A stretch of DNA of 26,667 nt from a virus. Taxonomy: Duplodnaviria > Caudoviricetes. The notes beneath the pieces were generated by a model. That model was not told the DNA's origin. It saw only the letters and a list, made by a program, of their open reading frames with translations, and did no database searches. Shown piece by piece: positions 2-22,257 of this stretch (position 1 is the stretch's first letter; every line of letters starts with the position of its first letter). Where the stretch lies: the IMG/VR virus record IMGVR_UViG_3300008119_000142, positions 1 to 26,667 of that record; one strand, written 5' to 3'. The translations under genes and the position numbers were made by a program.

Positions 2-2086
2 GCGCCACAAAGAGAAATAACTGAATCCGATTTGTTTGGAATTCAGTCAACTGCAAGCGCACCAACAACTGCAACTAAAACACTAACAAAAGATGATTTA
101 AAAAACACTAAAATAAAAGTTGATGGTGATAAAGATTTAGCATTAAAAGTTATTGAAAAATTTATAGAACTTGGTTTTCAAGATAATTTAAGCTTATCAG
201 AAGGTATTAAAGGTAATGATGTGCCTTTTGGATTATCAATAGATGATTTAGGTATAATCCGTAGAAGAACCAGTGAAGAAGCTTTTATCGAATTAAGTAG
301 AAAAGAAATTTTTCCATCCGACTTAGGTATCGATGTGAATAATTTAGGTGCAAGCGGTTCGACTGCAAGTTCACCAACAACATTAACAATAGACAATTTA
401 GATGGAATTAAGATAAAGGTTAATAATGATAGAGATTTAGCAAGAAAGATTGTAGATAAATTAGAATCTTTTGGCTTTACTGATAATAAAGACGTATTAG
501 ACCTTATAAATAATTCATCAGTAGATATTTATGCAATAACTACAAGCAAAGATACAACTTCAAGTTATGTTGGATGGTTCAATACCGAAAGAAGTTTTTT
601 TCAATTTGATAAGGTTCGAGAAGTAAGCGCATGGGATTTATTAAATCTTTCGGCAACTGCAATTAACAATCAACTGCCAACTGACTTAAGTCAAATACCG
701 AAAGGTAGAATGAAAGTTTTGTTTGAAATTAAAAAGTTTGTAGACGATAATAAGCTAACTCCTAATACGTTTATTGGCGATTCTTTTGGTAACCAAATAG
801 ATTTTGTAGACGAAGAAACTGGTGATGTTTTTGAATTTAATTATGGTGATGACCCCAACTTAATTGATGTTAAATCTTTAAGTCCGATGACAAAATCGGC
901 AAGCGACTTATTAGTGCAGTTTTTAGATTTTGAAAAAAGCTTTAATGATTTTGCAAGTAAAAAAGTAAAAGACCTATCGGGCGGTATTGCAGACCTTGAT
1001 TTGCTTGCCGTTTCGGAAGTAACAACATTTGAGAAGGAAAGAAAGGAAATAGATGCCTTAATTAAGCTTTTACCAGCGTTTCAAGAAAGTAAGTTTGCGC
1101 CACAAAAGGCTATGATACTTAAAGAGATAGGTAGGCTACACAAAAAGATTACCTACGAAGGTTTTATTTTTCAAAACGAAAGGTATTCTGATGCAAAGCA
1201 GTTGTTTACACCACAAGGGTTGTTGAAGTATTATTATACTCAAACAACACAAAGTCCAGTAGCATCGCTTGAACCAGCTTGTGAACTTGAAACACCTAAT
1301 GGTGCGAAAAGTAAGTTGCCTTTAAGTGCATACCTAAACGTAAGAACATCACGTTTTAAAAAGTGGTTTGGGGATTGGGAAAAAGCATACGAAACAAACA
1401 ACTATGTTGATTGCTCAAAAATGATTGACGAAGAAACTAAAGAGCCAAAAATATTTTATCATGGAGTGCGCAAGTATGTTCCTAATTTTGGTCAGTTTTC
1501 AAATATGGGGCAAGGGGTTGTAAGACCTTATGGTTCGTTTGAACCGCCTACGGCTTTTCCAGCTTCTTATTTTTCAGATAGCGAAGAATATGCAAAATTC
1601 TATGGTGGTATTGCACCTAATATGCCTAAACCAAGTGCAGACTATGAGCCGTTTATTTATAAAGTATTTTTATCAGCTAAAAACCCTATATCTTTATTGC
1701 CATTAGGATTTGAAAGTAGCTATAAGGACATGATTGATTACTTGTTAGTTGCTTATGGTGTGCGTGTTCAACCAAGCAGAAATGTATTGAATAGAATACA
1801 AAATGATATGAAAGCCAAACATCCAGTATGGGTGTATGTTCGTAATGATATAGCATTGTTGGAAACGTTAAAAGATTATGGTTACGATGCCTTAATTCAA
1901 ACTGGGGATATTCCTACCTTTGACGATAGTGGAAACGTTATAAACGATAGAAGTAAATTTATTCAAGACGAAGAATACTTAACTTTTTACCCAACGCAAG
2001 TTAAAAGCGCTACTGTGAAAAAAAGTTTCTATTTTGATTTTTTCAAAGATATAAGATTTAATAAAGGAGGATATGTTCGTATATAG
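2..2086 (+). CDS. 5'-truncated large polyvalent protein with tandem N-terminal repeats and a C-terminal ADP-ribosyltransferase-like (ART-PolyVal type) domain
   Basis: Frame is open from base 2 (APQREITESDLFG). C-terminal TPNG..L...VRT..FKKWFGDWE..SKMIDEETKEPKIFYHG, YFSDSEEYAKFYG and EEYLTFYPTQVKSA match the H-Y-E ART pattern of phage polyvalent proteins. Confidence 0.75.
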   Translation, partial: APQREITESDLFGIQSTASAPTTATKTLTKDDLKNTKIKVDGDKDLALKVIEKFIELGFQDNLSLSEGIKGNDVPFGLSIDDLGIIRRRTSEEAFIELSRKEIFPSDLGIDVNNLGASGSTASSPTTLTIDNLDGIKIKVNNDRDLARKIVDKLESFGFTDNKDVLDLINNSSVDIYAITTSKDTTSSYVGWFNTERSFFQFDKVREVSAWDLLNLSATAINNQLPTDLSQIPKGRMKVLFEIKKFVDDNKLTPNTFIGDSFGNQIDFVDEETGDVFEFNYGDDPNLIDVKSLSPMTKSASDLLVQFLDFEKSFNDFASKKVKDLSGGIADLDLLAVSEVTTFEKERKEIDALIKLLPAFQESKFAPQKAMILKEIGRLHKKITYEGFIFQNERYSDAKQLFTPQGLLKYYYTQTTQSPVASLEPACELETPNGAKSKLPLSAYLNVRTSRFKKWFGDWEKAYETNNYVDCSKMIDEETKEPKIFYHGVRKYVPNFGQFSNMGQGVVRPYGSFEPPTAFPASYFSDSEEYAKFYGGIAPNMPKPSADYEPFIYKVFLSAKNPISLLPLGFESSYKDMIDYLLVAYGVRVQPSRNVLNRIQNDMKAKHPVWVYVRNDIALLETLKDYGYDALIQTGDIPTFDDSGNVINDRSKFIQDEEYLTFYPTQVKSATVKKSFYFDFFKDIRFNKGGYVRI

Positions 2087-2777
2087 ACAAGGTAAGTTAA
2101 AGCAAGAGGTAATTGGTGTTAGTCCTACGGAACAAATTTATAGGCTAACGCATTTATCAAGCGGTATGGTTATAGAGGTTGAATTTGACCCTTCATCGCA
2201 AGGTTCGTATTCAGCTAATACAAACCCATATAAAGTTTACAAAGAAGTTAATGGTGTTTATACTATCTATGAGGAGTTTTATGCCAAAACAAAGTCAATG
2301 AAAGAGAATTTTGAGGAGGCTATTTTGTTTTTTGAAGATAATATTTATAAAGCTTTGAACGAAAAACCACCTCAACAACAACAACCACCATCGCCACCAA
2401 CAAAACCGCCTAAAAAAGTGGATGTACCACCAGAACAAGGTGATATTGTAAAAGTGAAAAATGAATTTGGTATTGTAACGGATGTTTACGGAACAAAGGT
2501 TATTACAAGAAAATTAACCAAAGAAGAAGCAACCCGAATTTTACAAGATAGGAAAAACGCAAGTATTTCTATTGGAGTAGCTGATACAAGTTCATCAAGT
2601 TCTACACCTATGTTCAAGAAAGGTGGAGTTACACCAAAAGTAGCAAAACCAATTGTTGGGGATGTTGTAAAGGTAAAAGGTAAATACGGAGTTGTTACTG
2701 ATGTTATCAATAACAAAGTTGAAGTAAAAAACATAAGTCAAACGGATGCTTTTCGCATTTTAAAAAATAAAAACTAA
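2073..2777 (+). CDS. Hypothetical protein with Pro/Gln linker and two KOW/SH3-like repeats
   Basis: GDIVKVKNEFGIVTDV...EATRILQ and GDVVKVKGKYGVVTDV...DAFRILK, separated by MFKKGG. Confidence 0.7.
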   Translation: MFVYRQGKLKQEVIGVSPTEQIYRLTHLSSGMVIEVEFDPSSQGSYSANTNPYKVYKEVNGVYTIYEEFYAKTKSMKENFEEAILFFEDNIYKALNEKPPQQQQPPSPPTKPPKKVDVPPEQGDIVKVKNEFGIVTDVYGTKVITRKLTKEEATRILQDRKNASISIGVADTSSSSSTPMFKKGGVTPKVAKPIVGDVVKVKGKYGVVTDVINNKVEVKNISQTDAFRILKNKN

Positions 2778-2782
2778 ACAAA

Positions 2783-3424
2783 ATGGCAGAAAATAAATTA
2801 CCGAGTAGTTTTTCGGAATACGACATGGAAACAGATAACATTGTTATTTTAAGAGTGAAACCATCAAGTCCACCACCACCAGAAGGAGGTTTTCCACCAC
2901 CGCCACCCGAAGATGAAGAACAAGAAGTGCCTAAAAACATTGAATACCCATTAGACGAAGAACCACCAACACCCGAAGGAGAAGGTGAAGGAGAAGGAGA
3001 AGGCGAAGGAGAAGGAGAAGGCGAAGGAGAAGGAGAAGGCGAAGGAGAAGGTGAAGGAGAAGGCGAAGGTGAAGGTGAAGGAGAAGGAGAAGGTGAAGGA
3101 GAAGGAGAAGGTGAAGGTGAAGGTGAAGGCGAAGGCGAAGGCGAAGGCGAAGGTGAATTCGGAGGTACAGACGATGAAGATTTATCATTAGAAGAACTTA
3201 TGAAAAAAATTCAAAAGGAATTTGAAAGTGGTAAGTCAGCGAAAGACATACAAAACCAAAGAGATATTGAAGCTATTGAAAGCGCTTTAGCCACATCACA
3301 AGACCGAATAAAAGGTATGTTTAAAACAAAAAGTGTTGCAAGGGTAGCTATTGGAAATAGAGTATTATTTGCACAAGACAACGAACAAAGAATAGATAAA
3401 GCTTTAAATCAAATTTTTAACTAA
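2783..3424 (+). CDS. Acidic protein with poly-Pro and (EG)30 tract, coupled to the MoxR ATPase gene
   Basis: ATG start after an A-rich spacer; TAATG overlap with the next gene. Confidence 0.8.
   Translation: MAENKLPSSFSEYDMETDNIVILRVKPSSPPPPEGGFPPPPPEDEEQEVPKNIEYPLDEEPPTPEGEGEGEGEGEGEGEGEGEGEGEGEGEGEGEGEGEGEGEGEGEGEGEGEGEGEGEGEGEGEFGGTDDEDLSLEELMKKIQKEFESGKSAKDIQNQRDIEAIESALATSQDRIKGMFKTKSVARVAIGNRVLFAQDNEQRIDKALNQIFN
2975..3157 (+). repeat. Hexamer tandem repeat (GAAGGN) x30 encoding (Glu-Gly)30-Glu
   Basis: Directly visible; only the Gly third codon position varies (A/C/T). Confidence 0.95.
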
Positions 3425-4767
3425 TGGAAAATACCACAAAAAAAGACTTAATGGATATTGTTGGGGAAACTGATAACCCACTAATACAAACACTTGCTAA
3501 ACAAAAAATGCAAGACGAATTTGAGGGCGATGCAGTGGCTCAAAAAATGATTCAGCTATCACAATTATTAAGTGCCTCACAACAATCGTCTAATTTAGAC
3601 GAAAACGAGGTAAAACGAATTGTTCGTGAAGAAATTGAAACTGATAAAATCAAGTTTGATGATTTAGACGATACTATTAAAAAGTTGTTGAATAATCAAC
3701 CTACAAATGTAACCTTGACTATTAATCAAGGAACTGCCGTTAGAGTTGTTACAACAACAGTAGATGAATTTATTTTAAGACCACTTGTTCAGAAAATTTT
3801 GAGTGATATTTTAGCAAGAAATAACGTTTACTTGTATGGTGGTGCTGGAACTGGTAAAACCTATTTAGCTGGTGAGTTGAAAAAGTTTTTAGGGTGGAAT
3901 TTAATTGTGGTTAATTGCAATCAATTTACTTCTGCTTTAGAATTAATTGGAGGACAAACTATTGATGGTTACCAAGAAGGTAAAGTTGTTCGTGCTTTTG
4001 GAAATTTAAACCCCGATGGTTCGCCTATGGGGAAAGGTTGTATTTTGCTATTAGACGAGTTGCCAAAAATTGACCCAAATACTGCTGGTATTTTAAATTC
4101 AGTTTTAGCCTCTATTGGTGAATACAATAGTAGTGGTGAACCAGCAACAATACAAAACGCTAAGGGCGATGTAATTCAACGTGGTGAGTGTTTTATCATG
4201 GCTACTGGAAATAGCTTACTTAACACCAAAGATGCCGAGTATGAAGCTAACTTCAAACAAGATTTGTCTTTACAAGATAGGTTTACTGGCTCAACTTATA
4301 AGGTGTTTGTTGACGAAAAATTTGAGTGGAATAAAATCATGAACCAAAAATGGGCATTTATTTTCTTGTACTTAACTAAATTGAGAAAACTTATTCAAGA
4401 CGAAGGATTTACTTCTAAAGCGTTTGTTTCAGTTCGACTTATGTTGTCAGTTCAAAAAACTTACAATGTATTCAGAAGCATTAAAAGCGCAACTGGTAGT
4501 AGTAAAAGTATCACTCCAGATGGTTCTGTTTCATTTACACCAGCGCCAATATCCCAAGCATTAATAGGAGTACAACCGCCAAGTGTAAAAACAGTTGAAG
4601 ATTCATTAAACGAATTTTTCAGTTTATTTACAACCGAGCAAGCCGATATTTTGAAAACTAAAAGCGACTATAAAGGTTGGTTGAATATTGTAAAAGAAAA
4701 AAACAAGTTGCCTTTAGACAAAATTAATAGTGATGCCGAGTTAGCTGAAATTAATAGCAAGTTTTAA
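3424..4767 (+). CDS. MoxR/CobS/CbbQ-like AAA+ ATPase
   Basis: Walker A GGAGTGKT, Walker B LLLDE, sensor-1 ATGNS, arginine finger QDLSLQDRF. Confidence 0.85.
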   Translation: MENTTKKDLMDIVGETDNPLIQTLAKQKMQDEFEGDAVAQKMIQLSQLLSASQQSSNLDENEVKRIVREEIETDKIKFDDLDDTIKKLLNNQPTNVTLTINQGTAVRVVTTTVDEFILRPLVQKILSDILARNNVYLYGGAGTGKTYLAGELKKFLGWNLIVVNCNQFTSALELIGGQTIDGYQEGKVVRAFGNLNPDGSPMGKGCILLLDELPKIDPNTAGILNSVLASIGEYNSSGEPATIQNAKGDVIQRGECFIMATGNSLLNTKDAEYEANFKQDLSLQDRFTGSTYKVFVDEKFEWNKIMNQKWAFIFLYLTKLRKLIQDEGFTSKAFVSVRLMLSVQKTYNVFRSIKSATGSSKSITPDGSVSFTPAPISQALIGVQPPSVKTVEDSLNEFFSLFTTEQADILKTKSDYKGWLNIVKEKNKLPLDKINSDAELAEINSKF

Positions 4768-4772
4768 AGCAA

Positions 4773-6605
4773 ATGAAATTAGACAATTTATTTGATGTAA
4801 TTCAACAAGTAGGGCAAAAGCCATATCGCATATTTGTAAATGATTGGGCGAGAAGCGCTATTACACAAGGTCAAGCTGATTATTCGGGTATTAGTTCTAA
4901 TGGTTTTGTTTTTAAGCAATACAAAAATTTAGAAGATGCTTTTGCCCACATAGAAGAAATTAAAAATAAGCCAAACAAAAGTAGCTATGAAAATTCAGCT
5001 TTGACTTTTGTAAGCGGTTCTGTAAACGGTTCTAACTATCAAGATTTTAAATCTTTTAAAGATTTTATTAATCAACCAAGTAGAAGTTTTGAGAAGATTA
5101 AAGAAATAAGCAAAACTTTAGTTGAAAACATAAAAACGCTTATCAATTTAGGTGGTTTGTATAAGAATGATAGGATTGTTGTAACCGAAGATACAAGAGG
5201 TATTTTTGATTTTGGATTAGCAAGCTTAGGTTTGTTTAGACCTATTGAGTTCTATTCACAAAAGTTGCAAGAAGATATTAAAAAAGGCGCAATTGAAAAT
5301 CCTTTTAAATTTGAGGGATTAGAAGCTGGTGTTGTAAATCCAGATAAGGTAAATAAAAAAATAATTGGTGGATTGACATTTTTTATATTCAATCACATGG
5401 GCAAGGAATATGATTGCGAAAAAAGACAAAGAGGGGCAACTAAAGTGTTTAATAGTTTTTCTAATGAATGTTTTTTAAAGCCTAACGATGATGGAATTAT
5501 TTTAACTTATTACTTGAATGACCAAAACAAGGTTTATAATGGGAAGGATAATATAAGGCTTAAATATGCATCGACCAATAAAAAATCATATCTTATATAC
5601 AACAAGAAGGATGATTCTGTAAAGAATGTTGATATTTTTATGCCAATTAATTTTATTGGAAATGTAAATGATAGTTCAAGGGGTTTGTTTTTGTTTCCAG
5701 CATATTTAATTTCAGCTACTTTAGAGCAATATGGTATTCAGTCAAGAATAAGCGCAATGAGGTTAGGTAGCGATGATAAAACGCAAATTACTGTTTCAAT
5801 ACCAGTTAAGGATTACAATGAATCAACTACTGAATCTTTTGATAGTATTTATGCTTTATTATCAAAATCTGGTTCAGCCGATAGTTTTTTTGCTTTTTTT
5901 AAAATTATAGCAGAAAATGAAGGAATTCAAGCAAAGCCTACTGGTGTTGCATACGCAAGTTTTAACGATGTTTATTACTATGAAAGAGATTATATGAATG
6001 ACATGATGCAACGCTATAAAAATTGGTGTGAGGCTAATAAAGACAAAGATTTTGTAAACACAAAAGTTGTAAACCCAAACTTTCAATTTGCACTAAGTAC
6101 AACTGCTTCAAACATTGCTGATTCAAGTATAAAATATGATAATATTTTAGAGTATTTACACCAAATTTTCTATAATTTTTATTACTATATGGATTTTTTA
6201 GCCATAGAAATGATTGATATGGTAGAGTTTGAAAAAAGTATTTATAAGCGAATTACAGAGGATGTTACCTTTAGAAAAATTTATAGCGTGCCAAGTTCAA
6301 AACAAGAAATTAAAGATTTGATGCGAAGCTATAGTGGTATGGCATTTCCGAATAAGCAACAAAAAAAGGATTTAAAAATTTTTTATAATCCCCTTACACC
6401 AAACGATGTTTATGTAAAATATACGGCTTATTCTTTGCAACCCGATAATAGCATTGAATCAGAAGTAAGAGTTCATTGCATAAAGCCTAATGGCTCAAAA
6501 ATGAATTGTGCAGAGCAATTTGAAGATTTAAGACAACGTATGCAGTTTGAATCTAATTTTATAGAGGTTGATTTGGATGCTAATGGTAATATAGTATTTG
6601 TATGA
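4773..6605 (+). CDS. Putative MoxR partner (degenerate VWA-like); the last ~88 aa may be a separate gene starting at 6339
   Basis: Directly follows the MoxR gene. The strand-helix-strand segment NVDIFMPINF..AYLISATLEQYGIQSRI resembles VWA-like partners, but no canonical DxSxS is seen. Confidence 0.5.
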   Translation: MKLDNLFDVIQQVGQKPYRIFVNDWARSAITQGQADYSGISSNGFVFKQYKNLEDAFAHIEEIKNKPNKSSYENSALTFVSGSVNGSNYQDFKSFKDFINQPSRSFEKIKEISKTLVENIKTLINLGGLYKNDRIVVTEDTRGIFDFGLASLGLFRPIEFYSQKLQEDIKKGAIENPFKFEGLEAGVVNPDKVNKKIIGGLTFFIFNHMGKEYDCEKRQRGATKVFNSFSNECFLKPNDDGIILTYYLNDQNKVYNGKDNIRLKYASTNKKSYLIYNKKDDSVKNVDIFMPINFIGNVNDSSRGLFLFPAYLISATLEQYGIQSRISAMRLGSDDKTQITVSIPVKDYNESTTESFDSIYALLSKSGSADSFFAFFKIIAENEGIQAKPTGVAYASFNDVYYYERDYMNDMMQRYKNWCEANKDKDFVNTKVVNPNFQFALSTTASNIADSSIKYDNILEYLHQIFYNFYYYMDFLAIEMIDMVEFEKSIYKRITEDVTFRKIYSVPSSKQEIKDLMRSYSGMAFPNKQQKKDLKIFYNPLTPNDVYVKYTAYSLQPDNSIESEVRVHCIKPNGSKMNCAEQFEDLRQRMQFESNFIEVDLDANGNIVFV

Positions 6606-7021
6606 GTAGTTTACAAGACATTGCAGATTCTTTAATAAGAATAGCATACACCGATAAGGAAGAAAGGTATAGTTGGATTCCGCTTTTAGCTAATAAGTTA
6701 AAAAGCGTTCCAAGTAGTGAAATTACTAACGAGCAAAGGCTACTAATATCAGAAATATTAGATAGCTTAGGTGAAGAAGTTTTCTATGCTCAAAAATCAG
6801 AAGCAGAAGCTACTGGCGAAGCGAAAAAGCAAGCTAAACCTACAAAAGCAAAAGCTACCAAAGCCGTAGCGGTAAAACCACAACCGCAAGTAATTGAGGT
6901 CGTAGAACCAAAAGTCGTTGTTGAAGAACCCGAAGTGATTGTTCCTACACCTACACCAAAAGTGGAAGCTAAACCTAAATCGGTTAATCGACCAAAGCAA
7001 GCTTGCACAAGCACAAGTTAA
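6602..7021 (+). CDS. Hypothetical protein with helical N-terminus and K/A/P/V/E-rich linker; probably frameshifted near 6985
   Basis: ATG overlaps the upstream stop; coding character moves to another frame at about 6985. Confidence 0.6.
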   Translation: MSSLQDIADSLIRIAYTDKEERYSWIPLLANKLKSVPSSEITNEQRLLISEILDSLGEEVFYAQKSEAEATGEAKKQAKPTKAKATKAVAVKPQPQVIEVVEPKVVVEEPEVIVPTPTPKVEAKPKSVNRPKQACTSTS

Positions 7022-9206
7022 TATATTGAAAATGATGGCTGACAAAACCGACAATTTCAAGACTAAAGACAAAGAAACTTTAGAAAAAATCGATGCAAGC
7101 TTAGACAAAATTATTGCAAAATTGAAAGAGAGTAATCCCGATGCTTTAAAATCAACGGCAAGAAAAACTACTGGTAAGGCAAAAGCCAAAACCACAAGTG
7201 CTTCAACTACTGGAGGGAAAAACAATGTAATGGCATTAGCTAAAAAAATTCGTAAACCAAACGAATCATGGACAGATGCACAAAAAAGAGCAAAAGAAAG
7301 CTTGCAAGGAGAAATTAAACAAGCTAATAAAGTAGTTACTTCGGAATTACAAAAGCTTAAAGCTTTTATTAATAGAAGAAAGCAATTAAAAGGTATTGCT
7401 GGAACTGACTTGCTTAGGGATTCCAAAAGACAAGCCAAACCGAGAGGTCAAAGAATATCAAAAGATGGAAATGTTTACTACGAGTACCGAGAAAATCGTA
7501 TTGATAGATTAGCGCCTAACTATCCTAAAAATGCGCCTTTATTAGCTGGAGGCGGAAGCTTAAATAATCCAAAAAAATATGTGGGTAAGCATTTTATAGT
7601 TGCTGACGAACTTTTTTATATTGGCGCTTTTAATGATACAAACCTACAAAGGTCTGTTCGTTATCTCAATAAATTAGGACAAGAAAATAATATTAAAAGT
7701 CAAAAATATCCAATGTTTCGTGTGTTGATTATTGAAAGAAATAATAAACTAAATTTTTATGATGAAAACCAGTCTGTTGTTGAAACAAGTTTGGTTTACA
7801 TGACTTTAGATAGACTAAAAAATATATTAAAAAACACTAAATTAAGCAGTCAAAAGTTGCCACCAAAATTTGCTAAAAAAGTACAAGAATCAAAAAAATA
7901 TTTTGACGAATTTGAATCCAAAAAATTTGCCGATGGCGGTGGTGTTGATGGTATCGAAGAAGATATTGACATGACTGATGATTATGTTTTAAGAGTAAAC
8001 AAAGGTGTACAACCCGAAGATAGAGCAAGTATGAAAGAATGGATGGCTAAAACAAACGAATCAAGAGAAGCAATGGCTTACAAATTAGGAGGCACTGTTG
8101 TTTCTGATTTAGCTGGTCATACTGGAGGTTCATTTGGCACTGGCAATCCAACATTGTTAAATGGAAACACTGGCGAATATTATACTGGATTAGTTGGTGA
8201 AACTGGTGCTTTGTCAAGCGGTGAAATGTTTGAAGGTGGCGGAAATTTGTCAAGAGATAGAAAATATGTAAACTATCGTGAAGATTACGAAGTTCGTTAC
8301 TCAAAAGGTAAAGGCAGACATGGTTATGGTAATTTGAAATTTGATGATGGCGGTGGAGTTTCTAAATCGCTTCGTTATGAGGATATTTTAGAAGTTTTAA
8401 AAGAAAAAATTGAAGATTCTGTTCAAGAACTACCAATAGAGTATGAGCAATCTGAAAACTTTGTAGGTGAGGAGGTAGAAAAAAATTCAAGGGATGGTTT
8501 TATTGCCTACACAGATGGTGGTTACGAGGTAAGATGGTTTGAAAGTGTTAATATGTTCAATAGTGGCGGTTATTCTTTGCCTACAAAAGTTTTAGATGCA
8601 GAGATGCAAAGACAAGTAGATAATAATTATCAGTATGCTAAAGAAAGATTTGAAAATGAATACCCAAGCATAGTTGAAGAACTTGGTGAGGAAAATATAG
8701 ACTACAATTCTTTATACGAAGCTGGTTATGAAAGTGAAGCAGAGGAACTTTCAGAGTTTGAAAGCGATAACGATGATACTATCATGTGTGAAATAGGTGC
8801 ATATTATTACGACACAAATAATTATAGAGGTATTGAAGGTAAACATACACTAAGGTTATTTGGTAACGTGAATTTGGAAAGTCCTTATCATAGACAAGGA
8901 AACTTGGATGACAGTTACGACATTGACATAACTTTTAATTCAATTAAAGAGTTAAAAGAAAAAGTTGATGCTGGATTAAAACAAATTTTAGATTGGTTTG
9001 ATGGCAAATACTACAATGATTCAAAAGCCGAAATGAAAATACGCAGAATGGCTAAAGGCGGTGGAGTTCGTAAAGTAGGAAACCGAGTGTATTCTTTAGG
9101 TAGAAATTGGACAAACGACCATAAGCACACTAATAAGTCTGAAAAACACGAAGTAAATTATAATAGAAAAATAATATGGATATATCACAAAAATTACATT
9201 TTTTAA
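6939..9206 (+). CDS. Modular GG-motif protein (basic modules plus an acidic ~230-aa domain); true ends uncertain
   Basis: Long ORF containing LAGGG, FADGG, YKLGG, FEGGG, FDDGG and MAKGG. Both the start and the last ~11 residues look artefactual. Confidence 0.7.
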   Translation: MFLHLHQKWKLNLNRLIDQSKLAQAQVNILKMMADKTDNFKTKDKETLEKIDASLDKIIAKLKESNPDALKSTARKTTGKAKAKTTSASTTGGKNNVMALAKKIRKPNESWTDAQKRAKESLQGEIKQANKVVTSELQKLKAFINRRKQLKGIAGTDLLRDSKRQAKPRGQRISKDGNVYYEYRENRIDRLAPNYPKNAPLLAGGGSLNNPKKYVGKHFIVADELFYIGAFNDTNLQRSVRYLNKLGQENNIKSQKYPMFRVLIIERNNKLNFYDENQSVVETSLVYMTLDRLKNILKNTKLSSQKLPPKFAKKVQESKKYFDEFESKKFADGGGVDGIEEDIDMTDDYVLRVNKGVQPEDRASMKEWMAKTNESREAMAYKLGGTVVSDLAGHTGGSFGTGNPTLLNGNTGEYYTGLVGETGALSSGEMFEGGGNLSRDRKYVNYREDYEVRYSKGKGRHGYGNLKFDDGGGVSKSLRYEDILEVLKEKIEDSVQELPIEYEQSENFVGEEVEKNSRDGFIAYTDGGYEVRWFESVNMFNSGGYSLPTKVLDAEMQRQVDNNYQYAKERFENEYPSIVEELGEENIDYNSLYEAGYESEAEELSEFESDNDDTIMCEIGAYYYDTNNYRGIEGKHTLRLFGNVNLESPYHRQGNLDDSYDIDITFNSIKELKEKVDAGLKQILDWFDGKYYNDSKAEMKIRRMAKGGGVRKVGNRVYSLGRNWTNDHKHTNKSEKHEVNYNRKIIWIYHKNYIF

Positions 9207-9652
9207 GCGACCATGCAGAAGAAGTTTATGGAAGTCCAATTGTAAAAGGACAAACAAATCCAAAAATGAATGAATTTTTTGGAAAATTAATTTATGAAAA
9301 ATATGACGATTTGCCCTTAAATACAAAAGTTGCTTTAGTTATGCACACAACTCGTGGTCAATACGCAAAAGGCGCTATTGTTCCAAGCAAGTATAACGTT
9401 TCAATTCAATACCCAACAAAATCGTCAAGGTCTAATTGGGCAAGTAATGATAATGTAGATATTAAAGTTGTTGCTAAAAATAAAGTAGAAGCAGAAAAGA
9501 AAGCTTTAGATGAATTTTCAAAAAAGTTTCCAATGCAAAAACCAAATTATGTACGAGTAACTAAAGACGAAGTTTCTTCTTTTGATAATTTAAGTTTAAA
9601 AAAAGGCGGTATGATGCCAAAAGTATCTGCCAAAAAACACAGAAACGATTAA
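9176..9652 (+). CDS. Hypothetical GG-motif protein
   Basis: YAKGA and LKKGG motifs flank a small domain; basic tail. Confidence 0.75.
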   Translation: MDISQKLHFLSDHAEEVYGSPIVKGQTNPKMNEFFGKLIYEKYDDLPLNTKVALVMHTTRGQYAKGAIVPSKYNVSIQYPTKSSRSNWASNDNVDIKVVAKNKVEAEKKALDEFSKKFPMQKPNYVRVTKDEVSSFDNLSLKKGGMMPKVSAKKHRND

Positions 9653-9668
9653 TTATAAAATTGTAAGC

Positions 9669-11546
9669 ATGAAATTATTTACAAAAGCCGAAAACGCTAA
9701 ATTGTTTGCCAATTACTCCAAAGGGAGTAATATGGCAAACCAAAACGTAGTGGTTAAGATATTTAATCCGTATGGCAATGGGCGATGGTACATTATGAAT
9801 TCAGACCCTAATGACCCAAACTATTTGTGGGGTATTGTTGACTTAGGCTATGGTGCAGAAGTTGGTAGCATTTCTCGAAGCGATTTGGAAAATTATAGAA
9901 ACCGATTTGGTTGGGGGTTTGAAAGAGATATGTCTTTTAGACCAAAAAATGCAAAAATGGTTTTAGAAGGATTGCGAAATGGTGAGTTTTTTGCTGGCGG
10001 TGGCGAAGTAGAGTTTATCGATTATGGTGATTCAGAAATCATGTTTGAGCCAAATTCCAAAAAATATTATGCTAACGAAATGGAATTCGATACCCTTGAA
10101 CAAGCTAAAAAGTTTATAGATAGTGGCGAAGTTCCGTATTTTATTAAAGATGCTTATTCAAAAGGTATGTTTAAAAAAGGCGGTGCTTTATTAACACCCA
10201 AACAAAGATACATAGCCGAATTAAAAGGCTTAACTGGTTTGCAACAAAAAGCTATTGAGGACTACATTGACGAAAACAATTTGACAAGCGATGAAGTATT
10301 GCGTATTGTTATTGGATTAGGTAGAAAGCAAATTAGCAGTAGCGATGTTAGCACTGCAATCGTAGGTAAAAAAAACAATTCTGAAAGCAAAAAGTTGTTA
10401 GCTTTTGCAATGTCAGACGAAGCTTTAAAAGCAGAATATGGTGCTTTTATGGATGGTGTTTATGCTGGCGGTGGAAGTATTTCTAATTTTGACCCAATGA
10501 GTTTAATGGGAAAAACATTTTATAGCTTACAAAGTCATGGTAAAATAATTAATGTTAGAATTTTATCAGACGACAACATCAAAATTAAGTACGAGGTATC
10601 AAACACTTTTAGTGTTGAAAAAAGCTTTACTAAAAAAGAACTTTTTGATATGGCTAAAGGGAAAGAAGTTGATGGCAATAGTATATTAAAAAGCACGATG
10701 GCTAATGGTGGGTTTATGGATGGTGTTTATGCTGGCGGTGGTGGTGTTTCTGATAAATTCGTAATAACCAAAAAACCCGATGCAAATTCATTATATTATA
10801 TAGTTTATTCTGAAAATGGCAAAAAAGTTCCAAGTAGCGAATTACCAACCAACATTGGATATGGTAAAATCAAAAATGAATTTTTATCAAAAAGAAAAAG
10901 ATATGATAATTCACTTGGTTTGCAAGATGCGGTTACTATCGTTATGAAAATGAATGATAAAGAAAGTTATTCTGGCGGTGGCAAAACAACCTTTGCTGAT
11001 AAGTCAAGTGCAATAGCCAAAAACTTTGTTGGGAAAGCCGTAGAACCTAAATACCAAAAAGAATACGGAAAACGCTACGATGCAAAAGAGGCTAAAGAAG
11101 TTGGTAACAAGATTGCTGGAAAGCAAAAAGCTTCTTACAACCAAAAATATATGGATTATGGAGGTGATTTCCCAGATTATGGTGAAACAGTTAGTGGTGA
11201 AGATATTGACTATGATATGAAAGATTATTTCAATAGAACTAACAAAAAATTGTTAATAACCACCAAAGACAAAAAGCAACACATAAATGGCGCAGTAACT
11301 AAATTTTACAATGATTTAATATTTGTAGCTAAGGATAAGCACGATATTCCAGTTAAAGATATTTTAAAAGTAGAAATTTTAAAAGATAATACCGCTAATG
11401 TTGAAAAACCAAAAAAGAGCATGAAAAGCGGTGGCAGTGTAAAAAGCGATAAACTAAAGCAAGTAACCCAAAAAGCGAAAGAAATTCGTAAAGAAGGTGA
11501 AAAATGGCAAAGTGCTATGAAGCGTGCTTATGCTATGATGAAGTAA
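9669..11546 (+). CDS. Modular GG-motif protein with N-terminal DUF2958-like domain
   Basis: VVVKIFNPYGNGRWY..LWGIVDLGYGAEVGSISRSDLE..GFERD resembles DUF2958; followed by modules separated by eight [FMY]xxGG motifs. Confidence 0.75.
   Translation: MKLFTKAENAKLFANYSKGSNMANQNVVVKIFNPYGNGRWYIMNSDPNDPNYLWGIVDLGYGAEVGSISRSDLENYRNRFGWGFERDMSFRPKNAKMVLEGLRNGEFFAGGGEVEFIDYGDSEIMFEPNSKKYYANEMEFDTLEQAKKFIDSGEVPYFIKDAYSKGMFKKGGALLTPKQRYIAELKGLTGLQQKAIEDYIDENNLTSDEVLRIVIGLGRKQISSSDVSTAIVGKKNNSESKKLLAFAMSDEALKAEYGAFMDGVYAGGGSISNFDPMSLMGKTFYSLQSHGKIINVRILSDDNIKIKYEVSNTFSVEKSFTKKELFDMAKGKEVDGNSILKSTMANGGFMDGVYAGGGGVSDKFVITKKPDANSLYYIVYSENGKKVPSSELPTNIGYGKIKNEFLSKRKRYDNSLGLQDAVTIVMKMNDKESYSGGGKTTFADKSSAIAKNFVGKAVEPKYQKEYGKRYDAKEAKEVGNKIAGKQKASYNQKYMDYGGDFPDYGETVSGEDIDYDMKDYFNRTNKKLLITTKDKKQHINGAVTKFYNDLIFVAKDKHDIPVKDILKVEILKDNTANVEKPKKSMKSGGSVKSDKLKQVTQKAKEIRKEGEKWQSAMKRAYAMMK
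10446..10741 (+). repeat. Exact 29-bp direct repeat (10446-10474 and 10713-10741) flanking one in-frame module
   Basis: TTTATGGATGGTGTTTATGCTGGCGGTGG occurs twice, 267 bp apart, encoding FMDGVYAGGG. Confidence 0.9.
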
Positions 11547-11551
11547 TTATA

Positions 11552-11592
11552 AGCGAGGTATTAAATTCAACCCTTAATGCCTTGCTATTTAA
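11552..11592 (+). terminator. Stem-loop, probable terminator of the left gene block
   Basis: AGCGAGGTATTAA pairs with TTAATGCCTTGCT (two G-U pairs); AT-rich tail with only a weak U-run. Confidence 0.55.
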
Positions 11593-11608
11593 TTAATTAT
11601 TATATTTG
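11582..11608 (+). promoter_or_regulatory. Bacteroidota-type housekeeping promoter
   Basis: TTG-N16-TATATTTG matches the -33/-7 (TAnnTTTG) consensus, with a slightly short spacer, in an intergenic gap before ATG 11642. Confidence 0.6.
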
Positions 11609-11641
11609 TCAATTAATAACCTAAACAATAAAATAAACACT

Positions 11642-12046
11642 ATGGAAACGATTAAAGATTTATTGAGTAAGCTTGACAACCAAGTAACACCATCGATGGC
11701 TAAACGTTTAGATGGATTGCAAGCGTTGCAAGAAAAAGCAGAAATTGCCAAAGAAGAATACGAGGCAAACCCAACGGATGAAAAAGAAGCGGACTTGAAT
11801 GAAATTCAAGAATACATTGTTGACCAAATGGAAGATATTGTAGAAGATTTAAAAGTTCTTGTTCGTAGAAAAAAATTCGCAGAAGAAGAAGCAAGTTCAA
11901 GACAAGCTACTCCTAAAGGTGATGAAAAACCTAAAGGTGAAGAAAAAGAAGAAAAAGAAGGTCTTGGAATGTTTGGTTGGATTTTCGGGGGTGCGTTACT
12001 TGTTGCTTCGTTTGGCGCAATTAACTATTTCAGAAATAATAGATAG
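11642..12046 (+). CDS. Acidic coiled-coil protein with C-terminal membrane anchor
   Basis: ATG 11642 preferred over TTG 11606; TM segment GMFGWIFGGALLVASFGAINYF followed by RNNR. Confidence 0.8.
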   Translation: METIKDLLSKLDNQVTPSMAKRLDGLQALQEKAEIAKEEYEANPTDEKEADLNEIQEYIVDQMEDIVEDLKVLVRRKKFAEEEASSRQATPKGDEKPKGEEKEEKEGLGMFGWIFGGALLVASFGAINYFRNNR

Positions 12047-12213
12047 TGGACAGAAAGAAAAAAATATTTTTAGCTATTGGTGTTGTCGGAATGGCAGTAG
12101 GGGGTTTCGTGCTTGCTAAATTTTTGACCAGAAATGTTCGGAAAATTAGAGGTGGTTCGGTAACCCTACAAACATTTGATACACCGCCAGTAGAAGAACC
12201 ATTAACCGAATAG
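12046..12213 (+). CDS. 55-aa single-TM protein (not in ORF track)
   Basis: GTG overlapping the upstream TAG; MDRKKKIFLAIGVVGMAVGGFVLAKFLTR...; fills the gap exactly. Confidence 0.7.
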   Translation: MDRKKKIFLAIGVVGMAVGGFVLAKFLTRNVRKIRGGSVTLQTFDTPPVEEPLTE

Positions 12214-12216
12214 GAT

Positions 12217-12921
12217 ATGTCGAAGTACACAAAAGTGAATATCAAAGTACCCGATGTAAATAGAACCTATGTTAGTGGTGCATATAATTATTCAAAACCA
12301 GAAGTTATTACGGCTAATAAAGCCATGATGGACAAAATATACAAGCAGTACGGAACTTTTATTAACAAGTGGGGTATTGAATTTGAAATTGACGATTCAG
12401 TTTTAGTAGGATTCATAGCCACTGAAAGTGGAGGTATCAATGCACCGCCAAATAGATATAACGCTACTGGATTAATGCAAATGACACCCGATGCAGTTTG
12501 GGAAACTATTGTAAAGTGGGATAAAATGGTTGGAAGCGCTTTGTCTAAAACGGCTTTGTCGTATTTTAATAGAATTATACCATCAAGCAAAAAGTATGAC
12601 CCAAACGTTTTGCCATCAAGTGCAGTAAAAGCAGAAATTTCCAATGCTTTGAAAAACAATAGTGAGTTTAACATTGCAATTGGAACGGCTTGTATAAGAT
12701 GGTTGTTAGAGGCATTTAGGTCAGATGGTAAAACAGAATTAAACAAAGTAATGGTATCTTACAACGCTGGATACTATTCAATGAGGAATCTTGTTAAAGG
12801 AAACCCAACTTCTGAAAGCTTATTGAAAAACAAAAAGATACCATTAGAAAGTAGAAGCTACTTACTAAAAATGCTTGGAGTTAATGGCTTCATGGATTTA
12901 TGGTTTCAAAATAAAAAATAA
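12217..12921 (+). CDS. Soluble lytic transglycosylase (SLT/GH23-like)
   Basis: Motifs ATESGG, ATGLMQM and SYNAG. Confidence 0.9.
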   Translation: MSKYTKVNIKVPDVNRTYVSGAYNYSKPEVITANKAMMDKIYKQYGTFINKWGIEFEIDDSVLVGFIATESGGINAPPNRYNATGLMQMTPDAVWETIVKWDKMVGSALSKTALSYFNRIIPSSKKYDPNVLPSSAVKAEISNALKNNSEFNIAIGTACIRWLLEAFRSDGKTELNKVMVSYNAGYYSMRNLVKGNPTSESLLKNKKIPLESRSYLLKMLGVNGFMDLWFQNKK

Positions 12922-12925
12922 AAAA

Positions 12926-13228
12926 ATGTTTAAGTTTCTTTATTTGTGTTGGAAAAGTTTTACTAAAGGCGACTATTGGATTTACTTCGGTAGTTCACTG
13001 GTATTAGGATTACCTTTTATTCAGTGTTTTAGTGTTTTTTTTGAATTGCCTTTTAAAACTGGTAATTTCAATTGCAGACAAGTTTTGTTACTCGGATTAA
13101 GTTGGTTGTTTTTTCTACTTGTATCTGAATTAGCAAATATGAAATTTAATAATAAGTTCTATTACAATCATGGTAACATTTACTGGGGTTTAATAGGCTT
13201 TAGTATAGCTTTATTCTTAATGCGATAA
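12926..13228 (+). CDS. Small polytopic membrane protein
   Basis: About three hydrophobic segments; ATG 12926 just after the upstream stop. Confidence 0.65.
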   Translation: MFKFLYLCWKSFTKGDYWIYFGSSLVLGLPFIQCFSVFFELPFKTGNFNCRQVLLLGLSWLFFLLVSELANMKFNNKFYYNHGNIYWGLIGFSIALFLMR

Positions 13229-13230
13229 GT

Positions 13231-13524
13231 ATGGCTTACACAATTAAAAAATATTCGTTTACGCAAGCTAAGAAGCTTGGTGTTGAGATAAAGCCATCAA
13301 CAAACATATTGAAAAAAATCGATGTGTTTAAAAATGGAAAAAAGGTAGCTTCGATTGGGGCAAGGGGTATGAACGATTACCCTACCTATTTGGAAAAAGA
13401 AAAGAAAGGGTATTACCCAAAAGGTTACGCACAAAAACGTAGGATGCTTTATAAAGAAAGGCACAAAAAAGACCGAAACGTGCTTTACTCGAATGGATAT
13501 TACGCTGATAAAATACTTTGGTAA
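13231..13524 (+). CDS. Small basic protein, DUF5754-like
   Basis: PST..KKIDV....ASIGARGMNDYPTY...RR.LYK.RH...YYADKILW pattern recalled from NCLDV-associated small proteins. Confidence 0.55.
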   Translation: MAYTIKKYSFTQAKKLGVEIKPSTNILKKIDVFKNGKKVASIGARGMNDYPTYLEKEKKGYYPKGYAQKRRMLYKERHKKDRNVLYSNGYYADKILW

Positions 13525-13591
13525 AAAGAAACTTGACAACACATAGTTAATGAGTTATTAAAAAAAAAATAATAACTTAAATTAAAGTAAA

Positions 13592-13867
13592 ATGACAAAG
13601 AAAACAAAAATGGTATTAGGTGGAGTAGCCGTATTAGGTTTAGCTTATTACCTATGGAAAAAAAGCCAAGATGGTGGAATGGCAAGCATGAGTGGTTATT
13701 CTAACTTCGATGGTGTAAGAATGAGCCGTTTTGCTAACGCAAGCGGAATGGGTTCAACTTCAACTGGTAGACAAAGAGTTTGTGTAAGACAAGAAAAAGA
13801 TGGTTCTACAACCACTTACACTTCTTTTGGAGGTCGTTGTCCTTATGGTGGAACACCAAGCGTTTAA
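13592..13867 (+). CDS. N-terminally anchored membrane protein with NAxG motifs and a two-Cys C-terminal hairpin
   Basis: TM segment VLGGVAVLGLAYYLW; YSNFDG and FANASG; CVRQ...RCPYGG. Confidence 0.8.
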   Translation: MTKKTKMVLGGVAVLGLAYYLWKKSQDGGMASMSGYSNFDGVRMSRFANASGMGSTSTGRQRVCVRQEKDGSTTTYTSFGGRCPYGGTPSV

Positions 13868-13877
13868 TATATAAATT

Positions 13878-14495
13878 ATGGCATTAGTATATGAAAATGT
13901 TGTTCCTAATTCGTATAGGAATGATTTCGTAAAAAAAGTTAGGGAGGTATCTACTCGATTAGATATTGACCCTAACTGGCTAATGGCAATTATGTATTTT
14001 GAAAGCGCCAAGAGTTTTTCACCGAGCATACAAAATAGTATTGGGGCGACTGGATTGATTCAATTCATGCCAAGCACCGCAAGAGGATTAGGTACTTCAA
14101 CTACTGCACTAAAAAATATGTCAGCCGTAGAGCAATTGGATTACGTTGAAAAATATTTGCGTGTGTACAAAGGGAAAATTAAATCTTATGTAGACACTTA
14201 TTTTGCAGTATTTTTTCCTTTAGCAATTGGCAAACCAGACGATTGGGTATTGCAAGGTGGTGGACTTACCGCAAAACAAGTTTACGATAGCAACCCAGCG
14301 TTCCGTAAAGTCAAAGATGGAAAATTGCGAGTTTGGGAAGTTAAAAAGGTAATGCTTGAAAAATTACCAAGAGAATGGGTAAATAATGGTACTTTAGGAT
14401 TAGCAATTAAGTCTTACAAAGATTATTTACTGATAGGATTAATATTAATAGCCGTTGGAGGTTTATACATTTACAGAAATGTTAGAAGAAAATAA
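13878..14495 (+). CDS. Lysozyme-like/lytic transglycosylase with C-terminal membrane anchor
   Basis: MYFES, GATGLIQFMP and EQLDYV motifs; TM segment YLLIGLILIAVGGLYIY followed by RNVRRK. Confidence 0.85.
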   Translation: MALVYENVVPNSYRNDFVKKVREVSTRLDIDPNWLMAIMYFESAKSFSPSIQNSIGATGLIQFMPSTARGLGTSTTALKNMSAVEQLDYVEKYLRVYKGKIKSYVDTYFAVFFPLAIGKPDDWVLQGGGLTAKQVYDSNPAFRKVKDGKLRVWEVKKVMLEKLPREWVNNGTLGLAIKSYKDYLLIGLILIAVGGLYIYRNVRRK

Positions 14496-14640
14496 CAAAG
14501 AAGAAATAAAAGGCGAGGTTAATAGCCAAATACATAAACACTTGTCTACAATATTCATTGTAGTGGGTATTGTTTCATTTACTTTGGGTGCAATTGTAAA
14601 CTATTATACTATTAAAAGATTAAACGGAAGTAAGCCATGA
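14479..14640 (+). CDS. 53-aa single-TM protein
   Basis: ATG 14479; TM segment IFIVVGIVSFTLGAIVNYY. Confidence 0.7.
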   Translation: MLEENNKEEIKGEVNSQIHKHLSTIFIVVGIVSFTLGAIVNYYTIKRLNGSKP

Positions 14641-15041
14641 AAATAAGCGGACAAGTTTTAGATAGTAGAGGTAATGAATTAGCCTTAGCCAATGTTACAA
14701 TTACAACTGGCGACAAAGCCAATAAATTAGGAGTTGTAGCAGACTTAGATGGTAAATTTGAAACTGAAAACGATTTAATTAATCCAGATTCAATTTTCAA
14801 AGTAAGTTACGTTGGATTTTTGCCACAATCTTTTAAAGCAAGCGAGTTAGTAGACAAAAAAATTACTTTATTAGAAAGCAATGAACTACTAACCGAAGTT
14901 AATGTATTTTCAAAACCTATACGAACTGCAAAACAGTCTGGTAGTGCCTTAAAAGCACATATTCAAAGCAACAAATTCACCTATGCTGGAATAGGTGGTC
15001 TATTGGGATTATTCCTTATAGTAAAATCATTTAAAAAATAA
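14637..15041 (+). CDS. CarboxypepD_reg-like (transthyretin-fold) domain protein with C-terminal TM
   Basis: KISGQVLD..NEL..ANV....GVVADLDGKF....VSYVGF...ITL....L.EV.V is the typical N-terminal domain pattern of Bacteroidota SusC/TonB-dependent receptors. Confidence 0.8.
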   Translation: MKISGQVLDSRGNELALANVTITTGDKANKLGVVADLDGKFETENDLINPDSIFKVSYVGFLPQSFKASELVDKKITLLESNELLTEVNVFSKPIRTAKQSGSALKAHIQSNKFTYAGIGGLLGLFLIVKSFKK

Positions 15042-15043
15042 TT

Positions 15044-15385
15044 ATGGAAGCACAATCAACTGCACCAGCAACTACTCCAGCGCCAGCTACTGCGCCAGCG
15101 CCCGAAGTTGCAAACGTAACATACCAAGCACCAGCTTCAACTCCACAAATGGAAACTGGCGGTGCTATGGAAACTATTGCCAAGCCTAAAATGAATATTA
15201 AGGATATTGTGATTAGCGCATTGTTAGTGGCTTTGTCTATTTATGGTATTTTCTATTATAGAAAGGCTATCAAAAAACTTGACGAACAACCAAGTTCCGA
15301 AGAATTTGATAACATGAGTGGCGATATTGAGGAAGTGAAATACAACCTTCAAAAAGCGTTAGGTAGAAAATATCAAAAAACCTAA
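15044..15385 (+). CDS. Membrane protein with A/P/T-rich N-terminus ending in METGG
   Basis: TM segment IVISALLVALSIYGIFYY followed by a coiled coil. Confidence 0.8.
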   Translation: MEAQSTAPATTPAPATAPAPEVANVTYQAPASTPQMETGGAMETIAKPKMNIKDIVISALLVALSIYGIFYYRKAIKKLDEQPSSEEFDNMSGDIEEVKYNLQKALGRKYQKT

Positions 15386-17698: not shown

Positions 17699-18544
17699 CC
17701 AAGAAACATTTGAACCAGAAATTATTGATAGTGATTTTCACCGCTTGATGCGCCAGTAAAGCAAAGGAGTTATACTTCGCACAAGATTGATTCTACGCAA
17801 CCAATGCCCGAATTGGAAGTTCCAACTTTTGAAACACCAATGTACACTGCTTTTGACGAACCCGAAGCAGAAGAAAAAGAAGAAAGACGACCATTCAACG
17901 AAGCGTATAGCGAATTAGATGGTAAGGAAAAGGCTATGGGTGCTGAAATGATGGCTGAAATGACTTTGGACTTATACGAAAAAGGTTGTGGATTCTTAGG
18001 TAAGTTACCCGAAATTAGCGAAGCTAAATTAGATAGGCGTATTGGTATGACTGACGAGCAATTGTTGGCTTACTATTTTGTTACCGACTTAGGTACAAAA
18101 GGGGTGCAAGCGTTCATGTTAAAGAAAACCGCTGACAATATTCTAAATAGCTTAAAAGAAAACACAATTGCTTTAAAAGAAAGTAGAGCGCCAAAACCAA
18201 GAGCAGAGCAACCAGCAAGACCGCAAGCTTCAAGCGTAGAATATACCGAAGATATAAGTGAGGTTGTTTCAGAAAGACCAAAAGCAAGCAAGCCAAAAAC
18301 AAACTTAGACGAACAAATTGAGTTTTTTGCCGAGCCAGAAGAAGTTGGTGTTTTTTCAAACTTGAAAGATAATGGTGGATTTAAAGAAGCGTTCCAAGAA
18401 CCCGATGGTATGCCCGAATTTGGTAACGCTGATATTTTAGCTGAATTAGAAAGATTGAGTGGCGAGCCAGAAAAGCCAGTTCGTAAAACAAGAGTTTCTA
18501 AAGCGCCAGTGAAAAAACCAAGAACACCAAGAAGTAAAAAATAA
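17691..18544 (+). CDS. Acidic protein with basic tail, coupled to the packaging ATPase; apparent 1-nt frameshift at ~17737
   Basis: ATG 17691 gives MSNQETFEPEIIDSDF; one extra T in the TTTT run joins it in frame (SPLDAPVKQRSY...) to ORF 17804-18544. Confidence 0.7.
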
Positions 18545-22256: not shown

Positions 22257-22257
22257 T

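Follow-up and report, generated by a model that had tools for sequence, protein, structure and literature searches.

A Seven-Residue Gly-Gly Joint Separating Exchangeable Units of Large Proteins in a Virus Family, and a Candidate Module to Read It

Introduction

The IMG/VR record IMGVR_UViG_3300008119_000142, a fragment of 26.7 kb that makes up the entire record and is referred to here as the window, encodes large proteins in which a short Gly-Gly string, called the joint in the following, recurs many times. This raises the question of whether the string is a cut site, a tag or a linker. From the letters of the window, an earlier note had taken such strings for cut sites of virion core polyproteins or for an encapsidation tag. 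In our analysis, the joint proved to be a boundary between exchangeable modules, and we consider it probable that it is cleaved at all. That it would be cut after its first residue, with a small His-Glu-Glu module as both reader and catalyst, is our leading though tentative reading, to which we assign, from sequence comparison, a probability of roughly 0.4. Neither the joint nor the virus family is described in the mostly open-access literature searched.

Results

The joint in the window and its relatives

Compared with close relatives, the window starts about 820 residues into its first large protein and reveals indel frameshifts or junctions near 6335, 6987, 9170 and 17740, which are probably sequencing or assembly errors. 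Due to these indels and the missing 5' part of the first protein, relatives are required to read the system. The conserved gene at 24428-25213, whose homologues fall into 1,145 protein clusters, was used as bait and led to 66 IMG/VR loci; 30 of the 66 records were analysed further, and the divergent record G031 was added through a motif scan. The joint-bearing features of the window are as follows.

32..2086, plus strand: last ~700 residues of polyprotein 1, with ART-PolyVal at residues 471-663 (Pfam PF18760, E 1.4e-9)
2057..2077, plus strand: joint FNKGGYV, read from the sequence, two residues ahead of the stop
2073..2777, plus strand: two-repeat protein with the joint FKKGGVT between the repeats at 2613-2633 (sequence, orthologue comparison)
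6939..9652, plus strand: polyprotein 2, interrupted by two indels (near 6987 and near 9170); joints start at 7542, 7926, 8079, 8229, 8340, 9048, 9362 (YAKGA) and 9596
9669..11546, plus strand: polyprotein 3, with DUF2958 at residues 3-94; joints start at 9990, 10170, 10431 (AEYGA), 10461, 10698, 10728, 10968, 11151 and 11421
15044..15385, plus strand: small protein with a Pro/Ala/Thr-rich N-terminal tail that carries the joint METGGAM (15149; joint present in 11/15 orthologues), a hydrophobic helix and a class II motif (15305)

The first frame aligns to residues 822-1505 of its orthologue in record G008, the full protein having 1,500-1,900 residues in relatives. The frames 6939-9206 and 9176-9652 probably form one protein, given the two indels in polyprotein 2. 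Polyprotein 3 would yield predicted pieces of 10-108 residues, and a single-sequence locus search with it confirmed no relative. The repeats of the two-repeat protein are those labelled KOW-like in the earlier note, and its orthologue in record G007 is devoid of both the motif and the second repeat.

All 18 sites named in the earlier note, as well as its variants YAKGA and AEYGA, are present in the frames it gave, though its coordinates lie 6-9 nt late, on the glycines; the true joint starts are those listed above. The observation itself is confirmed. In the open reading frames (ORFs) at 32-11546, which total 3,865 amino acids, the pattern [FMY]xxGG matches 20 times (overlaps counted), whereas 1,000 shuffles averaged 2.5 matches and never exceeded 8; the remaining 4,488 amino acids of the window hold 2 matches against 2.4 in shuffles. 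The pattern was picked on the window itself, and replication comes from 19 related records. In all 19, joints are more numerous than in the highest of 30 shuffles; two to five large ORFs hold them, and a single protein can carry as many as 31. These totals also count F[IV]GGG, a distinct repeat found in fibre-like proteins.

The consensus was derived from 504 sites in 57 cargo proteins; F[IV]GGG fibre-like proteins were excluded by rule, two more fibre-like proteins were removed and ORF1 of the window was added manually. The extended joint comprises seven residues, [YFM]-[AEK]-[KDN]-G-G-x-hydrophobic, with Ala at position 2 in 53% of the sites (10x background), Lys, Asp or Asn at position 3 in 62%, and Val, Ile, Leu, Thr, Met or Phe at position 7 in 91%. 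As its free positions are constrained, namely Ala at 2 and a hydrophobic residue or Thr at 7, the joint resembles a recognition site. The conservation of positions 1, 2 and 7 over all 504 sites, together with the retention of the joint at C-termini and in non-modular proteins, makes it highly improbable that the string is a flexible linker with no reader, spread by recombination and local duplication, even though modules are exchanged at the joint and tandem duplicates are common.

Joints lie at module seams

Pfam was run on 30 of the 57 cargo proteins, 21 of which gave matches; with two window proteins added, this amounted to 41 domain spans in 23 proteins, and to 181 joints. None of these joints lies inside a span, whereas 27.6 would be expected. 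In the window, ART-PolyVal ends at residue 663 and a motif follows at 676, and DUF2958 ends at residue 94 ahead of a motif at 107-108, so that both motifs stand at domain boundaries, as had been proposed. LPD11 (654-721) lies between joints 645 and 725, and ArdA begins 11-12 residues past a joint; a zeta-like kinase, RelA/SpoT, an N6 methylase, topoisomerase IB, Nudix and GNAT are further joint-fenced domains.

A pronounced direction is seen in joint-masked cross-genome alignments: 720 of 1,492 alignment starts fall just after a joint and 21 just before one, while of 1,679 ends 758 fall just before a joint and 83 just after. Internal alignment ends are found within 10 residues of a joint in 43% of cases, against 10% at random. 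Since the genomes are relatives of one another and masking can cut alignments short, more weight belongs to the direction than to the counts. Judged by Pfam spans and joint-bounded alignments alike, the joint is a conserved boundary that separates exchangeable modules in this family's large proteins, and the module-seam motif and polyprotein-like layout that had been read from the window are borne out.

Several conflict-related domains in variable order within one chain are also the layout of polyvalent proteins, for which early delivery and proteolytic release have been proposed (accessible text of PMC5512222). The same cargo domains occur in both (ART-PolyVal, LPD11, ArdA, adenine methylase), but the accessible text proposes a fused HExxH zincin, MPTase, found in about a third of polyvalent proteins, and describes no junction motif there, whereas our virus family encodes its zincin separately and has, as its fused candidate, a different and small module. 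Homologues of polyprotein 1 (P0147, P0163, P0169 and others) carry DNA polymerase III beta-clamp cargo domains according to precomputed Pfam, and the cargo of record G023 includes topoisomerase IB and Nudix.

A mapped cut in the tape measure of T5

The only mapped instance of such a site is found in the tape measure protein pb2 of phage T5, which is cut after R1127, as determined by mass spectrometry (PMC10038345, available part). In the T5 record, the site reads R/AEGGMM (the slash marking the cut) within the 1,219 residues of pb2, and the 92 residues that remain C-terminally agree with pb2C as given in the accessible text of PMC12617516. A matrix built from the virus family only (positions 2-7) ranks this site top in pb2, with a score of 14.1 against 5.2 for the next one. 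Based on the T5 precedent, the joint is therefore predicted to be cut after residue 1 and not after the Gly-Gly. The processing of pb2 to pb2* and pb2C resembles the proposed one in that the cut precedes A-E-G-G-M-M and a short Gly/Glu/His-rich module follows. It differs in that pb2 is a tail protein with a single site, whereas proteins of the virus family have up to 31, with neither a tape measure nor a terminase found in the family.

In the tape measure gpH of lambda, the two best sites are FATGGFT at 733 and YATGGYV at 778, and a cut at 733 would give pieces of about 80 and 12 kDa. Cleavage of gpH was reportedly described as early as 1974. The conversion of gpH to gpH* and gpHC is likewise similar, as the two joints flank an H-R-G-E segment and the cut at 733 approximates the reported fragment size; it differs in having no effector cargo between the joints. 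According to the accessible part of PMC12617516, which dates from 2025, a piece of ~14 kDa is removed from gpH, with site and catalyst stated as unknown.

Scanning IMG/VR DNA for tandem motifs yielded 28 stretches. Among the matches listed, most are the virus family's own, some lie in unrelated tailed-phage proteins (L148, L156 and L171; L170; L150, L160 and L174), and two appear to be chance matches (L151, L162). At L148:9325-14010 (minus strand), two adjoining proteins of ~780 residues in a putative T4-like baseplate region each carry 4-5 joints near the C-terminus.

The T5 cut also bears on the enzyme class that the earlier note had favoured. Adenain cleaves hydrophobic-x-G-G, and pS273R of African swine fever virus (ASFV) cleaves GG-type sites in core proteins. 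Like our system, both place a short Gly-Gly consensus in many of the proteins inside a jelly-roll virus, and perhaps in membrane- or genome-linked ones too. They differ in register, the adenain-type consensus, as quoted, having one residue before the Gly-Gly and the joint two, plus a hydrophobic residue two places after them, and in the position of the bond, which is predicted here before the glycines. A search for clan CE genes found Ulp1 (PF02902) and adenain (PF00770) in 0 of 13 records each (E 0.1), where a remote member could escape, the C5 control having no genome over the cut-off. A cut after the Gly-Gly by a clan CE protease is thus not supported, the T5 cut before A-x-G-G being the better precedent. 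Some members encode a PPPDE/DeSI-like permuted papain gene (PF05903, 30.3 bits against a cut-off of 29.2). As a reader, this PPPDE/LRAT-like peptidase was rejected, since it occurs in 10/30 records and 8/15 near-complete ones and is missing in the motif-rich records G004, G005 and G010. With the T5 cut lying four residues earlier, cleavage after the Gly-Gly by any cysteine protease of these two kinds, adenain/Ulp1/ASFV-like or PPPDE, is the least probable explanation that we weighed. In record G002, a PPPDE/DeSI- or LRAT-like protein (L070:136-609, plus strand) has a C-terminal hydrophobic helix and adjoins a short paralogue of the capsid candidate described below.

Another candidate lies within the cargo cluster of the window.

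3424..6605, plus strand: AAA_5/MoxR-like ATPase and partner gene, with a frameshift or fusion near 6335

This pair was considered as a loader and dismissed, because it is missing in records G014, G023, G026, G029 and G031, all of which keep joints; not being universal, it is not an obligatory reader either. The 30 cargo proteins scanned gave no peptidase Pfam match, and one cargo protein of G031 holds an HExxH string.

A His-Glu-Glu module as candidate reader

Within polyprotein 1, at variable position and usually fenced by joints, lies a module of 70 residues that we name after its His-Glu-Glu residues. It falls upstream of the window start and is known from relatives. Exactly one copy is present in 30 of the 31 family records and in 15/15 near-complete ones, the lone exception, G001, ending ahead of the module-bearing gene; 20 of the 30 module-bearing records had seeded the profile and 10 had not. 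His11, Glu28 and Glu33 are invariant in 120/120 sequences (the best 120 of 2,007 homologues), while extra copies of the module lack the His part in 29 of 32 cases. In most homologues, a joint follows directly. These features make the module a candidate reader and protease of the joint. It was not found in three unrelated tailed-phage fragments that carry the joint.

When the module was compared with 50,697 phages by tblastn, it matched only the C-termini of tape measures, those of Cellulophaga phage phi46:1 (E 6e-4, two records) and Elizabethkingia phage TCUEAP1 (E 0.06), and both tape measures finish in a joint-like string. The phi46:1 segment, searched in turn, had weak matches in 184 records (E up to 10); of the 60 that were listed, most carry a tape-measure annotation. 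Tested by profile, the module showed no link to T5 pb2, lambda gpH or the L148 protein beyond what shuffles gave, and such a link was discarded.

A host protease that cuts the joint after entry or during assembly would be an alternative catalyst, which we judge very improbable: we know of no host enzyme with the joint's specificity, and a virus-encoded, joint-ending module is kept once in nearly every record. The occurrence of the string in unrelated viruses of probably different hosts would fit a host enzyme, as would a title from 1973 cited in PMC10038345 (accessible part), which names a role of the host in cleaving a T5 tail protein.

An M48-like zincin and a second motif

The bait gene itself encodes the rival enzyme.

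24428..25213, plus strand: beta-sandwich and M48-like zincin (HEFSH); universal core gene, rival processing enzyme and candidate class II reader

H188, E189, H192 and E202, i.e., HExxH and a distal Glu, are invariant in 48/48 aligned sequences. The predicted model has a predicted local distance difference test (pLDDT) score of 91.4 and reaches Z 8.2 to BepA (root-mean-square deviation 4.1 over 120 residues) and Z 6.7 to 3c37. On this model, the HExxH and the distal Glu sit on an M48-like fold, which points to an M48-like gluzincin. A PDB sequence search gave nothing significant, Foldseek returned no E below 0.001, and Atlas only unnamed clusters, with an M48 lead at 0.83.

Gluzincins often favour a hydrophobic P1', and position 7 of the joint would supply one. 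Together with the invariant active-site residues, the likeness to BepA and the presence of the gene in G031, a record found by another route, this would fit a cut of the joint by the zincin, with the module being structural or muralytic. We nevertheless hold this to be unlikely. Having served as bait, the gene is present in the 66 loci by design, and it was not found in the three joint-carrying tailed-phage records, which are fragments. Furthermore, its neighbours are capsid and membrane genes that encode proteins with a motif of their own. This class II motif, [FY]-x-N-[AVFLM]-x-G, counts 130 sites across the family against 48 (maximum 61) in 20 shuffles and is carried by the N-terminal arm of the capsid candidate and by small hydrophobic proteins. 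In the window, it lies at 21119, 21173, 22128, 22516, 13697, 13730 and 15305.

21861..22806, plus strand: two small proteins that carry [FY]-x-N-A-x-G, the class II motif (at 22128 and 22516); another of this kind is encoded at 13592-13867

In the protein at 15044..15385, a putative transmembrane one, the joint and the class II motif stand on opposite sides of the hydrophobic helix.

A probably tailless virus family

Further core genes of the window indicate what kind of virus carries the joint.

21065..21763, plus strand: candidate major capsid protein of the single jelly-roll type, whose N-terminal arm, modelled at low confidence, bears two class II motifs (21119, 21173); 30/30 records
18544..19362, plus strand: P-loop ATPase core gene (272 residues); 24/24 records; AAA_22 E 8e-4, weak terminase PHROG E 1.3e-5

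For the capsid candidate, a single-domain protein of 232 residues, AlphaFold gave an all-beta core at 52-200 (pLDDT 70.5 overall). It reaches Z 4.7-6.7 to the capsids of phiCjT23, FLiP, PM2, PBCV-1, faustovirus and plant viruses, mixed with non-viral sandwiches and with none at Z 8; Atlas gave 0.75. PDB sequence searches with the capsid candidate, the module and a cyanophage-like segment yielded nothing significant. Paralogues of the capsid candidate occur in records G006 (6 matches, including a 406-residue frame with two copies), G007 (a tandem pair) and G026, and the double copy is a possible step from a single to a double jelly-roll. The P-loop ATPase is a putative packaging ATPase of the FtsK/A32 type.

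Terminase_6N (PF03237) and PhageMin_Tail (PF10145) were each found in 0/13 records, with positive controls, and the 105 proteins of G002 gave no tail, portal or HK97 match. Inverted terminal repeats (ITRs) are present in 6 of the 30 records and, as a seventh, in the divergent G031; ITR-ended records measure 63-84 kb, other family records up to 102 kb. The virus is thus probably tailless, with a membrane-containing jelly-roll particle. Linear ITR genomes, a P-loop ATPase, a beta-sandwich capsid candidate and many small hydrophobic proteins are shared with the tailless jelly-roll prokaryotic viruses described in the accessible text of PMC5894146, from which the family differs by its 63-102 kb genomes, its 232-residue single-domain capsid candidate and its motif-fenced polyproteins. 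The word "protease" has 0 occurrences in the main text of that paper as accessible.

Lysozymes, an M15 peptidase and a DnaA-type helix-turn-helix are encoded and indicate a bacterial host. From a CarboxypepD_reg gene, low GC (guanine plus cytosine) content and the tape-measure matches of the module, we infer a host among the Bacteroidota.

A conserved PAP2 phosphatase (window 16227-16871), three glycosyltransferases, a sulfotransferase and an APS kinase (also L067:6685-10888; L069:15870-17212) suggest a lipid and sulfated-glycan modification of the virion. Record G002 encodes a stripped, family B polymerase palm-like protein of ~240 residues (L070:7026-7733, minus strand; motif resemblance only), adjoined by a joint-ending protein of ~300 residues (L070:7739-8602, minus strand), and the pair is possibly a minimal polymerase and terminal protein of the ITR genomes. 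At 2783-3424 of the window, a proline-rich stretch is followed by a long Gly-Glu dipeptide repeat, which in G004 is joined to the upstream gene.

Discussion

A number of points weigh against a cut after residue 1 by the His-Glu-Glu module. Position 1 is Arg in T5 and Tyr, Phe or Met in the virus family. The 70-residue module has no noteworthy Pfam, PHROG or PDB match, and its conservation is inflated because the 120 homologues were the top-scoring ones. Even after both Bacteroidota tape measures were included, its profile misses T5 pb2 and lambda gpH, doing no better than 200 shuffles, so that its link to T5 and lambda runs through the motif only. As the C-terminal motif of T5 is described as muralytic in the available text of PMC10038345, the module could also be a cell-wall enzyme. 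The family has no cultured member, and three of its core proteins are without a match among the 50,697 phage records. Finally, there are joints whose cutting would separate nothing: in 11 of 57 cargo proteins the last joint lies within 9 residues of the C-terminus, 32 of 447 joint spacings are 6 or 10 residues, the commonest short spacings, and the single-domain protein beside the PolB-like gene (cluster 35) carries one C-terminal joint in 9 of 11 orthologues.

The C-terminal, tandem and membrane-tail copies suggest that something binds the string, cut or uncut, and they keep alive a reading in which the joint is bound as a tag and left uncut. Its binder, be it the module, a scaffold or the packaging vertex, would use it for loading the virion or for threading out on entry, and the proteins would act at full length. 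The copies at C-termini, including those of cluster 35, in tandem and on the membrane tail would fit avidity or tethering, and a low-complexity Pro/Gly-rich protein of an unrelated high-GC phage (L170:9020-10282, plus strand) has six tandem joints at a spacing of 6 residues. Moreover, the N4 virion RNA polymerase, ArdC and TraC1 are delivered uncut (accessible text of PMC5512222). However, T5 R1127 is a cut site, and a tag has no need to occupy nearly every seam and never the inside of a domain. We consider an uncleaved tag rather unlikely as the whole explanation, though it and cleavage by the zincin are the two serious competitors of the preferred reading. Tag and cut site need not be exclusive, since joints at ends and tails may dock the module.

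Under the preferred reading, cleavage after residue 1 by the module, the polyproteins would be loaded into a membrane-containing jelly-roll virion, where the module would cut its own flanking joints in cis and then act in trans inside the assembling particle. Products of 40-300 residues, most starting with A-x-G-G, would include ART, ArdA, zeta-like kinase, RelA-like, DNA methylase and Nudix pieces as well as basic DNA-binding ones, and these would accompany the DNA into the host and act early in counter-defence and takeover. The same module would dock at the joints found at C-termini and on the membrane tail, and the class II motif would be the target of the zincin. We infer each of these steps, from packaging and cutting to catalysis and delivery. 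It is doubtful, but conceivable, that the module is an undescribed miniature processing peptidase, the tape-measure catalyst of tailed phages, which a large tailless single-jelly-roll lineage, so far unclassified, has adopted as a trans-acting polyprotein protease for dozens of injected effectors, with the zincin reading a second code on capsid and membrane proteins.

A joint consensus drawn from 504 natural sites picks out the mapped cut of T5, predicts a lambda gpH site after F733 and names a candidate catalyst. It also parses about 500 mostly unannotated modules of 40-300 residues, which lie next to known anti-restriction and toxin-like domains and may serve as a candidate list of counter-defence factors. 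As the virus family seems tailless, the joint would be separable from tail assembly. Beyond what is known from tail proteins, this locus shows the joint in a lineage where no tape measure was found, offers a candidate reader present in single copy, and has a second motif that comes with another putative protease.

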